Notes: generated by a model from the letters alone, not told the origin. Numbered from the stretch's first letter, positions 11,694 through 21,308 are shown. The stretch: 63,300 bases of DNA from Dehalococcoidia bacterium (GCA_030665785.1 DAOUZA010000001.1:1-63300); one strand, 5' to 3'. Translations and numbers: made by a program.

Positions 11694-12707
11694 ATGACCA
11701 CAAAAATTGGCATCAATGGTTTTGGGCGTATTGGAAGATTGGCTCTGAAGGCGATTAAGGAGCGATGTGATGGCAAATTAGAGGTGGTGGCAGTCAATGA
11801 CCTCACCGATGCTAAAACTAACGCTCACCTTTTTAAGTATGATAGCAATTATGGTATTTATTCCGGGAAGGTGGAGGCTAAGGAGGACTCAATCATAGTA
11901 GATGGTAAGGCGATAAAGGTAATAGCGGAACGAGACCCTGCTCAAATTCCGTGGCGTGATTTTGGGGTTGATATTGTGATTGAATCAACGGGGCTTTTCA
12001 CCGAGGCTAGCAAAGCAGCAGCTCATCTCCAGGGTGGGGCAAAGAAGGTGATTATCTCGGCGCCAGCCCGTGGGGAGGATATAAGCATCGTTCTTGGTGT
12101 TAATGAAGGGCAATATGACCCTGAAAAACATCGCATCATCTCCAATGGCTCGTGCACTACTAACTGCATTGCGCCGGTGGTGAAGGTTCTGCACCAAAAC
12201 TTCGGAATTACGCACGGGCTAATGACCACCATTCATTCTTACACCAATGACCAGAAAATTTTAGATGTGTTTCACCGTGATTTGCGGCGTGCCCGAGCTG
12301 CCGCGGTTAATATCATACCTACCACCACTGGTGCAGCTCGCATGGTAACTGTGGTTATTCCTGAGCTTAAAGGAAAGCTACATGGCATCTCTATAAGAGT
12401 ACCCACCGCAACAGTGTCTATCGTCGACTTAGTTGCTGACCTGAATAGAGAAGTGACTGGCGAGGAAATCAACGGTACCTTTAAAAAGGCTGCTGAAGGG
12501 GAACTTAGAGGTATTGTGGAATACTGTGATGAGCCTCTGGTAAGCTCGGACTTCAAGGGCAATCCCGCCAGCGCTATTTTTGATGCCCTGAGCACTATGG
12601 TCATCGATGGCAATCTGGTGAAGGTGCTGGCCTGGTATGATAATGAGTGGGGCTATAGTTGTCGTCTCGCTGATTTGGCTATGTATATTGCCAATAAAGG
12701 CTTATAA
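11694..12707 (+). CDS. gap: type I glyceraldehyde-3-phosphate dehydrogenase
   Basis: 337 aa. INGFGRIGR, catalytic SCTTNC and WYDNEWGYS. Confidence 0.97.
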
Positions 12708-12727
12708 TCTCAAAAGTTTATTATAAA
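12275..12727. repeat. left copy of a 453-bp direct repeat (gap 3' end plus 20 nt downstream)
   Basis: Aligned by eye to 20856..21308 at a constant offset of 8581. No indels and 17 mismatches. Confidence 0.9.
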
Positions 12728-12844
12728 AAAAGTGCTTGACTGAGCGACAAAATGTGCTAAGCTGTGTTTGATTTGGAGAAATACTGGATCGCTAGGTTTG
12801 TGCTCAGCTATGCGCAGAGTGCGCAACGAAATGCAGGTGGCTAA

Positions 12845-14560
12845 ATGACACAGGATGATAACAAAGCCCTATATGAAGCCCGGCCGTGGACGAAATGGTA
12901 TATGGAAGGTGTGTCGCCAAACTTGGAAGTCGAGGAAAAGTCTGTAGTGGACATGTTCAATGAGGCTGCAGAAAAATGGAAAAACAAGACCGCTGTAATA
13001 TTCTATGGTAGAAAGATGAGCTACCGAGAGCTCAGGGACCAGGCTGACAGATTTGCTACAGCACTACATGATTTAGGAGTCAGGAAAGGGGATAGGGTTG
13101 CCCTCCTGCTGCTTAATTCGCCTCAGTTTATTATTGCTTATATGGGAGCACTGAAAGCTGGAGCTACCTTAACGACAATTAGCCCTGTTTATGTCAGCCC
13201 CGAAATCAAGTACCAGCTTGAAGACAGCGGGGCGAAGATGATTGTTTGCCTGGATATTCTTTATGATAACGTGGAAAAAAGCGGAGTCAGGCTGGATGCT
13301 GTCATCGTGACCGGCATCGGTGAATACCTGCCTAAAATGAAAAAATTTCTGAGCAGCAGTGTGCTCCGATCTGTATATCAGAAAATGGCTACCCCGCCTG
13401 TTGAACTGCTTGAAAAAGAGGGATTCTATCGCTTCCAGGATTTGATTAAGAAATATCCCCCGAATCCACCCAAAATTGAGTTTGATATTAGAGAGGATAT
13501 AGTAACTCTTCCGTACACTGGAGGCACAACCGGGATGCCCAAAGGTGCTATGGTAAATCATTACAATTTTGGCGCTGCTCGAGAGCTCGCCGATAAATTC
13601 TGGGGACATCTCGCTCAGGAAGGTCAAGAAACGGTGATAGCCTATTTGCCCTTCTACCACATCTACGGTCAAGTAGTGGTCATGATAGGCAGTTTAAGCC
13701 AGGGTTATACTCAAGTGCTACTCACTACTCCCGACCCTGATGACATTCTGAGTGCAATTGAAAATTACAAAGCAACTATTTTCTACAGTGTTCCCGCCCT
13801 GTATGAACACCTCACTGACTATGAAAAGACTAACAGGGTAAATTGGAAACGCATAAAACTCCTCATCTCCGGTGCTGATGCCCTTCTTGAGGATACGGCC
13901 CGGGGCTGGGAAAAGCGAACCGGCGCTAAAATTCACGAGGGCTGGGGAATGACCGAGACCACGTCGGTGGGCATCGTGAGTCCCTACGGCAGGGTGAAAA
14001 TCGGTTCCTTCGGCGTACCTATGCCTGGTACTGTGGCAGCCATACTTGACCCGGAAAGCAACAAGTTTCTGCCCGTTGGGGAAACAGGCGAACTGGCATT
14101 CAAAGGACCGAATGTCGTCAAGGGATACTGGGAGAAGCCGGAAGCAACGAAGGAAGCGTTTGTGGAAATTGACGGTGAGACCTGGCTGCGCACTGGCGAC
14201 CTGGCAAAAATGGATGAAGAGGGCTATTTCTACTTCTACGATAGGAAGAAAGATATGATTAAATACAAGGGTCTGCAGGTATTTGCCAGGGAGGTAGAGG
14301 AAGTAATTACTTCTCATCCTCAAGTCAAAGAGGCCGGCGTCATCGGTGTGCCCGACCCCGAGGTTGGTGAGAAAGTCAAAGCCATCGTCGTTCTTGAATC
14401 AGAAGCCAGAGGGAAGGTGTCGGAAGAAGAAATTACGCAGTACTGCGCTGGAAAGCTGGCTCACTACATGGTACCCAAGATAATCGAGTTCAGGGGCGAG
14501 CTGCCCAAGACGGATGTCGGCAAGGTATCACGCCGCGAGTTGAGAGAGGAGGAGCTATAG
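12845..14560 (+). CDS. AMP-dependent acyl-CoA synthetase/ligase (FadD-like)
   Basis: 571 aa. AMP-binding motif LPYTGGTTGMPKGA, plus GWGMTET and a C-terminal PKTDVGKV. Confidence 0.92.
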   Translation: MTQDDNKALYEARPWTKWYMEGVSPNLEVEEKSVVDMFNEAAEKWKNKTAVIFYGRKMSYRELRDQADRFATALHDLGVRKGDRVALLLLNSPQFIIAYMGALKAGATLTTISPVYVSPEIKYQLEDSGAKMIVCLDILYDNVEKSGVRLDAVIVTGIGEYLPKMKKFLSSSVLRSVYQKMATPPVELLEKEGFYRFQDLIKKYPPNPPKIEFDIREDIVTLPYTGGTTGMPKGAMVNHYNFGAARELADKFWGHLAQEGQETVIAYLPFYHIYGQVVVMIGSLSQGYTQVLLTTPDPDDILSAIENYKATIFYSVPALYEHLTDYEKTNRVNWKRIKLLISGADALLEDTARGWEKRTGAKIHEGWGMTETTSVGIVSPYGRVKIGSFGVPMPGTVAAILDPESNKFLPVGETGELAFKGPNVVKGYWEKPEATKEAFVEIDGETWLRTGDLAKMDEEGYFYFYDRKKDMIKYKGLQVFAREVEEVITSHPQVKEAGVIGVPDPEVGEKVKAIVVLESEARGKVSEEEITQYCAGKLAHYMVPKIIEFRGELPKTDVGKVSRRELREEEL

Positions 14561-14561
14561 A

Positions 14562-15332
14562 ATGGCGCCATTTTTCCAAGTGGAAAACTTGACCAAGCGT
14601 TTTGGCGGCTTGGTCGCCGTCAACAATGTCAGCTTCACAATAGGCAGGGACGAAATCGTGGGACTGATTGGGCCCAATGGTTCCGGGAAGACCACACTTG
14701 TCCGGTGCATAACCGGCATATTGAAGCCCGAGTCGGGAAAAGTCCGATTCAAGGGTGAGGACATAACCAGGTGGCGTCCCTGGAAGGTCGTCCAGAGAGG
14801 TCTGGTAGGGACTTTCCAGGTAGTTAAGCCGTTCCGCCGCCTTCCTATTGTTGCCAATGTCATGGTCGGTTGCCTCTGCCCGCGGATAACCAAGAGAGGC
14901 GAATGGGTCAAGGGCACCGAAGTGAAAGCGCGGGATGCTCTGGAGTTCGTGGGCATCGCCGACCGGGCTCTTGAGCCAGCCTCCACCTTGTCTCACGGAG
15001 ACTTGAAACGGTTGGAGGTAGCCAGGGCCATTGCCACCGACCCCGAACTCCTCATCCTTGATGAGCCATTCGGAGGACTTAATCCTGCGGAAACAGAGCT
15101 GGTGGCCAAATCCATGAAAAGACTGCACAAGGGAGGTCGCTTCGGCCGGCTTCATAGTGAAGGACCAGCTATGCTGATAATCGAGCACAAGCTGAGTGAG
15201 CTCATGAAAATAGTTGACCGGGTGATTGTCATCAATTTTGGACAAATCATTGCCCAGGGTACCCCCGAAGAAGTAGTCAAAGACCCAGTAGTGATTGAAG
15301 CCTATACCGGCAAGGAGATACTCGTTGCTTGA
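14562..15332 (+). CDS. ABC transporter ATP-binding protein (LivG-like)
   Basis: 256 aa. Walker A GPNGSGKTT, signature LSHGDLKRLEVA and Walker B LILDEP. Confidence 0.92.
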   Translation: MAPFFQVENLTKRFGGLVAVNNVSFTIGRDEIVGLIGPNGSGKTTLVRCITGILKPESGKVRFKGEDITRWRPWKVVQRGLVGTFQVVKPFRRLPIVANVMVGCLCPRITKRGEWVKGTEVKARDALEFVGIADRALEPASTLSHGDLKRLEVARAIATDPELLILDEPFGGLNPAETELVAKSMKRLHKGGRFGRLHSEGPAMLIIEHKLSELMKIVDRVIVINFGQIIAQGTPEEVVKDPVVIEAYTGKEILVA

Positions 15333-20666: not shown

Positions 20667-20689
20667 CCCTCTCCCTGGACGGGAGAGGG
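20667..20689. repeat. hairpin CCCTCTCCC-tggac-GGGAGAGGG
   Basis: Perfect 9-bp stem. A related copy is at 32009..32029. Confidence 0.8.
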
Positions 20690-20703
20690 CCATTCCACAT
20701 TTT

Positions 20704-20754
20704 GTAGTGCGACCCTTCAAAGTCGCGCCCCGCGAGGCTAAAGCCTCGCACTAC
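20704..20754. repeat. hairpin element gtagtgcga...gaggctaaagcctcgcactac
   Basis: GTAGTGCGA(21-nt insert)GAGGC-taaa-GCCTCGCACTAC. Confidence 0.7.
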
Positions 20755-20855
20755 CTTTTTAGCCCCCTGTAGCGCCTGAGGCCAAACAGCGTTGTGGGAT
20801 TACTTTTCGGTCTTAGCCACCGTGGCAAAGCCTCCTTTCACTTACGCTTTGGGCT

Positions 20856-21288
20856 CCGTGATTTGCGGCGTGCCCGAGCTGCCGCGGTTAATATCATACC
20901 TACCACCACTGGTGCAGCTCGCATGGTAACTGTGGTTATTCCTGAGCTTAAAGGAAAGCTGCATGGCATCTCTATAAGAGTACCTACCGCAACAGTGTCT
21001 ATCGTCGACTTAGTTGCTGATTTGAATAGAGAAGTGACTGGAGAGGAAATCAACGGTACCTTTAAAAAGGCTGCTGAAAGGGAACTTAAAGGTATTGTGG
21101 AATACAGTGATGAGCCCCTGGTGAGCTCGGACTTCAAGGGCAATCCCGCCAGCGCTATTTTCGATGCCCTGAGCACTATGGTCATCGATGGCAATCTGGT
21201 GAAGGTGCTGGCCTGGTATGATAATGAGTGGGGCTATAGCTGCCGTCTGGCTGATTTGGCTACCTATATTGCCAATAAGGGCTTATAA
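20856..21288 (+). pseudogene. gap: 5'-truncated gap fragment (last 144 codons plus stop), right copy of the direct repeat
   Basis: Frame intact. 4 aa differences (G>R, R>K, C>S, M>T) from gap residues 194..337. No gap 5' part lies upstream. The track ORF 20794..21288 is an artefactual extension. Confidence 0.85.
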
Positions 21289-21308
21289 TCTCAAAAGTTT
21301 ATTATAAA
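20856..21308. repeat. right copy of the 453-bp direct repeat
   Basis: See 12275..12727. Identity ends after ...tttattataaa in both copies. Confidence 0.9.

Follow-up and report, generated by a model that had tools for sequence, protein, structure and literature searches.

In an uncultured Dehalococcoidia bacterium, an operon block encoding an acyl-CoA ligase and an ATP-binding cassette (ABC) transporter sits directly behind the glycolytic gene gap, bracketed by a 453 bp direct repeat of the gap 3′ end. The stretch of DNA analyzed here, referred to as the window, is 63,300 nucleotides long (GCA_030665785.1, DAOUZA010000001.1:1-63300). The insert, or cassette (12728-20855; 8,128 bp), begins 20 nt past the gap stop codon. 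It is real and represents a strain-level variant, as filled and empty alleles of the site coexist among close strains. The insert is a core-type operon block that was relocated or duplicated, with both cuts in intergenic regions, and is not a dedicated mobile element. We think it probable (roughly 0.6) that the block was placed behind gap by insertion-duplication through homologous recombination, via either a Campbell-type crossover or homology-facilitated illegitimate recombination (HFIR), and without an element-encoded recombinase.

The gap gene (11694-12707, + strand) encodes a 337 aa type I glyceraldehyde-3-phosphate dehydrogenase (GAPDH) containing both the Gp_dh_N and Gp_dh_C domains. 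Its product scores 447.8 bits against TIGR01534 (cutoff 367.2) and is 99% identical to the protein of the empty-site relatives described below (P0001). The last 143 codons fall within the left copy of the repeat (12275-12727, + strand), which holds gap codons 195-337, the stop codon, and 20 nt of downstream sequence. The right copy (20856-21308, + strand) is an orphan gap 3′ fragment that lacks the NAD-binding domain and the catalytic Cys. Its product matches Gp_dh_C alone, and the fragment is presumably inert. We did not see gap-like sequence upstream of the right copy, and no coding remnant was found in 20100-20855. Self-comparison of the window at an offset of 8581 gave 17 mismatches and no indels over the 453 bp (96.2% identity), in agreement with the values given in the first-pass annotation, which had also correctly described the left copy as continuous with an intact gap and the right copy as missing the gap 5′ half. 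The boundaries of the repeat are sharp; beyond 12275/20856 and 12727/21308 the identity is at the level of random sequence. Apart from these two copies, the window has no repeat of 35 nt or more in either orientation, and the 453 bp repeat is thus far beyond chance.

Upstream of the insert the gene order is peptidyl-tRNA hydrolase, a SLOG-family gene, enolase, a metallo-beta-lactamase (MBL) fold gene, and gap. Beyond the insert are a CARDB lipoprotein gene (21385-22386, + strand), dnaX, ybaB, recR, and recO. A promoter-like site (TTGACA, 17 nt, TATGTT; 21312-21340, + strand) lies before the CARDB gene. It had been predicted that related genomes would carry an empty site in which gap is followed directly by the lipoprotein gene at 21385, and this arrangement is present in seven contigs from two related lineages, one with 96-99% nucleotide identity to the window (L081-L083) and one with about 90% identity (L084-L087). 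A BLASTN of the window against the empty sites breaks exactly at 12727 and 20856, and the single 453 bp segment of the empty sites aligns to both copies of the repeat. The empty-site comparison rests on metagenome contigs, as the GTDB representative genomes are too distant: they include no close relative, and the best gap match among them is 72% at the amino acid level. A second gap fragment was found at 0/80 GTDB gap loci. Exact-protein look-ups with the gap, ligase, and CARDB proteins of the window returned no match, probably due to short-read contigs breaking in or near the repeat.

Both junctions of the insert are supported independently of the window. At J1 (12727/12728), the sequence downstream of gap is joined to the left end of the cassette within an A-run, 8 nt before the −35 box of the cassette. 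The identical join position is found in L088, a contig of a metagenome-assembled genome in NCBI that represents a different strain and comes from a different project. L088 is 97.4% identical to the window over 12493-18291, with the cassette genes at 97-99.7%. At J2 (20855/20856), the cassette tail is joined to mid-gap at the third base of codon 194. This junction is crossed by a Logan single-run contig (L093) that is 100% identical to the window over 18107-20885 and was seen in three samples. L093 stops 30 nt after entering the right copy, which is where a k=31 assembly would be expected to break at a repeat. The interior of the cassette is tiled by L092-L094 together with L088.

The cargo has a native home elsewhere in the chromosome. 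In about 48 of the 88 cassette-bearing loci examined, the ligase/ABC genes have a divergent thiolase gene as their neighbor; they are near nadA in 11 loci and near cutA in six, and upstream of cutA/nadA wherever the contigs extend that far. Only the window and L088 have the cassette adjacent to gap among these 88 loci. The ligases of the native loci are 73-87% identical to that of the window. In JGI metagenomes the ligase identity is at most 87% and the context is native every time; neither a further gap-adjacent copy nor a native partner for J2 was found there. Homology to the native loci sets in a few nt from J1, shortly before the promoter-like motif of the ligase operon, and spans about 12722 to about 20210-20478, followed by repetitive extragenic palindromic (REP)-like repeats typical of the native intergenic region, and the nucleotide identity by segment is 87%, 81%, and 70%. 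The cassette is elevated in GC (52.5% vs. 45.9%). This excess was considered as a sign of foreign origin and rejected, because the native locus has the same offset (51.5% vs. 45.8%) and the excess is therefore intrinsic to the cassette. The fixed native home, the homology limits, and the shared GC thus point to a core-type block that was either relocated or duplicated.

We did not find genes that would mobilize the cassette, in agreement with the first-pass annotation, which had reported no integrase within it. Integrases, recombinases, and transposases were absent from a Pfam scan of open reading frames (ORFs) of at least 150 aa across 4559-28955 and from the precomputed Pfam annotations of syntenic relatives, and no integrase or transposase genes occur within about 9 kb on either side of the cassette. 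A tRNA/tmRNA scan was negative, the window lacks inverted repeats of 35 nt or longer, and viral contigs yielded no relative of the ligase and no exact match to the J2 sequence. The insert also does not resemble a transposon or insertion sequence element, having no transposase, no inverted repeat, and a duplication that is 453 bp rather than short. A short att core, for which tens of base pairs are typical, is likewise absent, the repeat being 453 bp with sharp ends.

The two copies of the repeat differ in the manner of alleles, as would be expected if one came from another strain. Sixteen codons differ between them, 12 synonymously, which corresponds to 12.5 synonymous vs. 4.5 non-synonymous differences and a dN/dS of 0.107 (P = 7e−5 under neutrality; P = 0.005 if one copy decayed in place). 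The changes unique to the right copy comprise five synonymous and one non-synonymous. Thus, the divergence arose in functional genes, and the copies are alleles of different strains and not the result of in-place decay. When compared with the gap 3′ end of L081-L083, the left copy is identical at 431/433 coding nucleotides (two mismatches) and the right copy at 418/433 (15 mismatches; P = 4e−4 at the left-flank rate). Divergence from L081 is 1.16% over the left flank (9366-12727) and 2.9% over 22456-26055; the left copy resembles the former and the right copy the latter. The left-flank block, about 99% identical to L081, abuts J1, further left the identity is 95-96.5%, and 21280-21512 is again identical to L081. 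All of the variable sites (17/17) sort as one allele per copy, and a crossover could hide only in the first 105 nt of the repeat (12275-12379), which are free of mismatches (P = 0.011). These 105 nt are not specially conserved, with 10/105 differences to L084. Between L088 and the window, divergence is 7% in the gap fragment and 14% in the J1-proximal promoter region, in contrast to the high identity of the cassette genes. The population is strongly mosaic, and J1 is not a very recent join. Within such a mosaic, the ancestry of single-nucleotide polymorphisms favors none of Campbell integration, HFIR, or post-insertion conversion.

General recombination is favored because the repeat is 453 bp long, a recombinase is lacking, and the cargo is of the core type. 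A donor fragment already carrying the gap 3′ end and the cassette would have recombined with the resident gap. The donor may have been a circularized, non-replicating molecule of 8,581 bp that integrated by a single Campbell-type crossover within the 453 bp of homology, and both the crossover and an associated conversion tract could sit in the identical 105 nt. It may instead have been a linear fragment from a donor with the cassette behind gap, pairing homologously at one end and joining illegitimately (J2) inside the resident gap, as in HFIR; the block of about 99% identity that abuts J1 would be compatible with this route. Either way, one complete copy of the essential gap gene and one orphan 3′ fragment would result, and frequent allelic recombination afterwards would have blurred the traces. 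The intermediate (circular or linear), the copy that was resident, the uptake route, and the inertness of the orphan are what we infer. A contiguous target segment is found as direct repeats around the insert and one intact gap is kept, as in Campbell integration. The first-pass annotation had seen in this the footprint of a circular element integrated by Campbell-type or site-specific recombination. The insertion with target-end duplication, the intact gap, the empty site, and the junctions all hold and Campbell integration is a good candidate, whereas the site-specific part of that proposal does not fit with the missing recombinase, the 453 bp repeat, and the conserved chromosomal cargo.

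Several observations weigh against insertion-duplication as outlined here. Just right of the repeat, 21280-21512 matches L081 at every position (P = 0.001 at the right-flank rate), and the right copy therefore looks like an isolated diverged patch and not like part of a diverged right flank. The 7% divergence of the gap fragment in L088, against 1-3% in the cassette genes, means that later allelic recombination overwrote much of the original signal. Neither a circle junction, nor a circular-donor contig, nor the donor arrangement (J1 without J2) is among the loci retrieved. Every version needs two novel joins, J1 and J2, and thus at least two steps or a coincidence. Microhomology, of 3-10 nt in illegitimate joins made by HFIR, is assessable at J1 only, where an A-run of at least 3 nt is common to the target (…TATAAA) and the upstream sequence of the native cassette (…AAAAAGCTTGACA).

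The main rival to insertion-duplication is an in-genome duplicative insertion, which is possible but unlikely. Here, template switching or end joining would have copied the genome's own native locus to the position after gap and resumed 453 bp behind the break; the copies would at first have been identical, and a functional gap tract from a diverged strain would later have overwritten most of one of them. The divergence between cassette and native loci is of the same order as that found genome-wide (88-91% identity), so that a source in the same lineage is possible. The mismatch-free start of the repeat is expected if the tract from an empty-site donor could begin only inside the right copy, 20961-21279 is a diverged patch with L081-like sequence on both sides, and the population is visibly mosaic. 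However, two independent events are required, the native locus is neither evidenced as kept nor as lost in the genome of the window, and no microhomology is demonstrable at J2. The data fit a Campbell model with a crossover-associated conversion tract equally well. A different reading, which we consider quite unlikely, takes the cassette itself as mobile, integrase-free, and addressed by homology. RecA would free an 8.58 kb circle, and the gap fragment would serve as the address for Campbell re-integration elsewhere, such that a metabolic operon may hop between diverged strains and always restore the essential gene. The 97-99.7% identity of the genes set against the 7% difference of the gap fragments, and the allele-like dN/dS, are hints in this direction.

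A site-specific integrative (mobilizable) island that uses gap as its attachment gene, with an integrase acting in trans or since lost, is very unlikely. A glycolytic gene as target is not unprecedented, as the integration site of ICESt1 and ICESt3 in Streptococcus thermophilus is the 3′ end of fda. As in an island, the 3′ end of the target gene is regenerated and empty sites exist in relatives, and the near-identity of the cassette in two strains with gap fragments 7% apart hints at transfer between backgrounds. Islands that target 3′ ends are also known in Dehalococcoides (PMC3146451). These points are countered by the lack of a recombinase in or near the segment, the length of the repeat (453 bp vs. 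20 bp in the ssrA islands), and the cargo, a conserved chromosomal locus that dozens of relatives carry at a fixed native position and that is next to gap nowhere beyond the window and L088. A second gap fragment is missing from all 80 GTDB gap loci, and there is no viral or mobile-element context. An assembly artefact is highly improbable. Two strains' contigs could have been joined at gap, or the assembly graph could have been misthreaded through the identical 105 nt, in which case the right-copy allele would in truth belong to an empty-site chromosome, and a circle of 8.58 kb would exist apart from it. In favor of an artefact, the sequence almost certainly comes from a metagenome assembly, the 3.8% difference between the copies is of strain level, short-read contigs do stop within the repeat (L088 at its start, 12493, and L093 at its end, 30 nt past J2), and the identical 105 nt make both pairings topologically interchangeable. 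Yet a chimeric join cannot make J2, which links unrelated sequence to mid-gap and was recovered in independent k=31 assemblies of three runs, J1 is shared with a second strain from a different project, and the cassette is contiguous from J1 to J2. A circle of 8.6 kb without a replication gene would not persist, and reads of 150 nt are long enough to span the 107 nt from the flank to the first polymorphism. The residual ambiguity is confined to how the graph threads through the 105 nt identical stretch.

Insertion-duplication of this form has close counterparts in known systems. In Campbell insertion-duplication, as used in suicide-vector integration and in insertion-duplication mutagenesis of transformable bacteria, the long direct repeats are the cloned homology, one intact copy results when the homology reaches the 3′ end of the gene, no dedicated recombinase takes part, and the event is reversible by recombination between the repeats. 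All of this resembles the gap locus. Here, however, the event is natural, and the “vector” would be a circularized chromosomal fragment without a replicon. HFIR has been proposed as the origin of the strings of orphaned 3′ regions in Rhs, contact-dependent inhibition, and type VI secretion system loci (PMC5361080, with de Vries and Wackernagel, 2002; Prudhomme et al., 2002; Meier and Wackernagel, 2003 among the HFIR sources it cites). A one-sided homologous anchor with a non-homologous join is possible at gap as well, and a displaced resident 3′ fragment would lie downstream of the incoming copy in both. The target differs, being a housekeeping glycolytic gene and not a polymorphic toxin locus, and its 3′ ends are 96% identical and not divergent. 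The ssrA islands of Dehalococcoides have a 20 bp repeat, and six genes make up their integration module, which includes the serine recombinase DsiB (McMurdie et al., 2011, PMC3146451). They come from the same bacterial class as the window, and like the insert they sit at the 3′ end of an essential single-copy gene, have a duplicate of that end at their far boundary, and vary by strain. The window is unlike them in its 453 bp repeat, its lack of a recombinase, and its core-type operon cargo.

A parallel case was found in an unrelated Dehalococcoidia lineage (L176:547-2424, also L177-L179). A xenologous full-length gap (354 aa, 52% identical, GC 43% vs. 48% in its neighbors) is followed about 240 nt downstream by a relic of the native gap that covers residues 146-337 and has a mutated catalytic Cys motif; the MBL gene is still upstream. 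We read these loci as in-situ gene displacement that left an orphan 3′ half, which indicates that one-ended replacement stranding a gap 3′ fragment does occur in the group. As in the window, an intact gap precedes an orphan native-gap 3′ fragment and the upstream MBL fold gene is kept. In contrast to the window, the incoming gap is only 52% identical, a spacer of about 240 nt separates the two, there is no cargo operon, and the breakpoint is at residue ~146 and not 194. A search with the right-copy ORF also returned many truncated GAPDH proteins (P0241-P0360) with recurrent lengths of 146, 161, 176, 219, 243, and 246 aa. A recurrent breakpoint in gap was considered and rejected, as the truncated proteins start at conserved internal Met/Val codons. 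Two of the truncated calls were checked, of which one is a partial gene at a contig edge (L180) and the other a frameshifted gene (L181), and L176-L179 is the sole true second fragment.

The cassette begins with a promoter-like element (TTGACT, 16 nt, TAAGCT; 12736-12763, + strand) that came in with the cassette and would serve the ligase operon. The related sequence GCTTGACA...TAAGAT is kept upstream of the ligase gene in 12 native loci. The first gene (12845-14560, + strand) encodes a FadD-like acyl-CoA ligase of 571 aa with AMP-binding and AMP-binding_C domains. Its top NCBIfam models are long-chain-fatty-acid--CoA ligases, every one of them under its cutoff, and the protein is 99% identical to P0121 and 83-87% identical to native-locus orthologs. 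Two ABC ATPase genes follow on the same strand. The LivG-like ATPase (14562-15332) contains ABC_tran and BCA_ABC_TP_C domains and matches the LivG model with an E-value of 2e−60, which is below the model cutoff. The LivF-like ATPase is supported by Pfam and NCBIfam; its mechanically called ORF is 15295-16074, and its true start is probably near 15325, because the orthologs are 249 aa. On the opposite strand are a LivM-like permease (16217-17296; BPD_transp_2, with matches to LivM/UrtC models) and a LivH-like permease (17265-18140; BPD_transp_2) with a promoter-like site upstream (18304-18275). The first-pass labels of AMP-dependent CoA ligase, LivG/F-like ATPases, and LivH/M-like permeases agree with these Pfam and NCBIfam results.

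The last gene of the cassette (18526-20070, − strand) encodes a lipoprotein of 514 aa with a strong terminator-like hairpin beside it (18485-18453, − strand). The protein itself has no direct match in Pfam, NCBIfam, or PDB. Peripla_BP_6 is matched by 8/11 of its orthologs (best E-value 1.3e−29), and a profile of its family finds LivJ/K-type binding proteins in PDB. Thus, we consider it a divergent LivK-like (Peripla_BP_6) binding protein, a designation that the earlier annotation had also used and that is borne out solely by this transitive evidence from orthologs and family profile. A single-sequence AlphaFold model was of no use (predicted local distance difference test score of 34) and was set aside in favor of the ortholog and profile searches. 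With two ABC ATPases, two BPD_transp_2 permeases, and the Peripla_BP_6 protein, the set for a HAAT-family (LivFGHMK-type) importer is complete, in addition to the AMP-binding ligase. The predicted function of the cargo is the uptake and activation of organic acids or fatty acids.

The right tail of the cassette (20071-20855; 785 nt) is non-coding. Up to about 20210 it holds the conserved 5′ leader of the binding-protein gene, and dispersed REP-like elements lie at 20506-20566 and at 20702-20760. In a search for the origin of 20169-20855, only the binding-protein leader and dispersed REP-like repeats matched elsewhere, with no coding remnant, and an Rfam scan of the cassette including the right tail matched no family. 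REP-like elements also occur at 16116-16178 and recur between genes in many relatives, in both orientations. The cassette varies among loci in other respects. In the native locus L089 (15816-17742), a gene of 419 aa lies between the permease and binding-protein genes; its product has no Pfam match and has a C-terminal membrane anchor, and it is absent from the window cassette (18306-18445). L088 departs from the window at about 18291, near the point of this missing gene. A Y1_Tnp (IS200/RAYT-like) gene of 155 aa lies in the convergent intergenic region of the cassette in L095 (4324-4791), and there is none in the window.

The surroundings of the insert vary among strains as well. The CARDB lipoprotein gene is hypervariable (21656-22455), with 75-80% identity to L081-L083 and flanks at 96-99%, and its proteins vary in length (333, 337, and 345 aa). 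This variability suggests that the surface protein is under diversifying selection or that its alleles are swapped. Near the gap start, 11765-11777 has seven mismatches to L081-L083 in 13 nt within a block that is otherwise about 99% identical, which looks like a recombination micro-patch or a multi-nucleotide change. A second strain-variable spot lies about 5 kb from gap, where L081 (3679-5945) has a 2.3 kb insertion encoding DarT and Macro proteins (a DarTG-like toxin-antitoxin) between the acyl-CoA dehydrogenase and NUDIX genes; the window (7423-7541) is without it. A block of thiolase, ChsH2-like, and acyl-CoA dehydrogenase genes (4559-7423) is present in the window and L081 and absent in L084/L085 from the ~90% lineage, in which the DNA ligase and NUDIX genes are direct neighbors. 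The block represents a further indel, in this case of a lipid-metabolism module.

The gap locus is a new example of a known recombination outcome and, on this evidence, an ordinary product of recombination. It also calls for caution with metagenome data. Long near-identical repeats at housekeeping genes break short-read contigs, as in L088 and L093, which both end inside the repeat, and they may pass for chimeras or integrase-type islands. Most truncated gap calls that recur at the same lengths in metagenome protein sets are artefacts of contig edges or frameshifts, and can mimic real fragments. For the organism, insertion behind gap would allow a strain to gain or relocate an uptake-and-activation module with glycolysis unharmed, and the 453 bp repeats would leave the module deletable by RecA. 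The locus is a clean natural example of an uncultured, streamlined Dehalococcoidia population moving a whole operon beside an essential gene without a mobile-element recombinase. If the cassette does cycle through a RecA-made circle, it would illustrate gene mobility that is free of recombinases.

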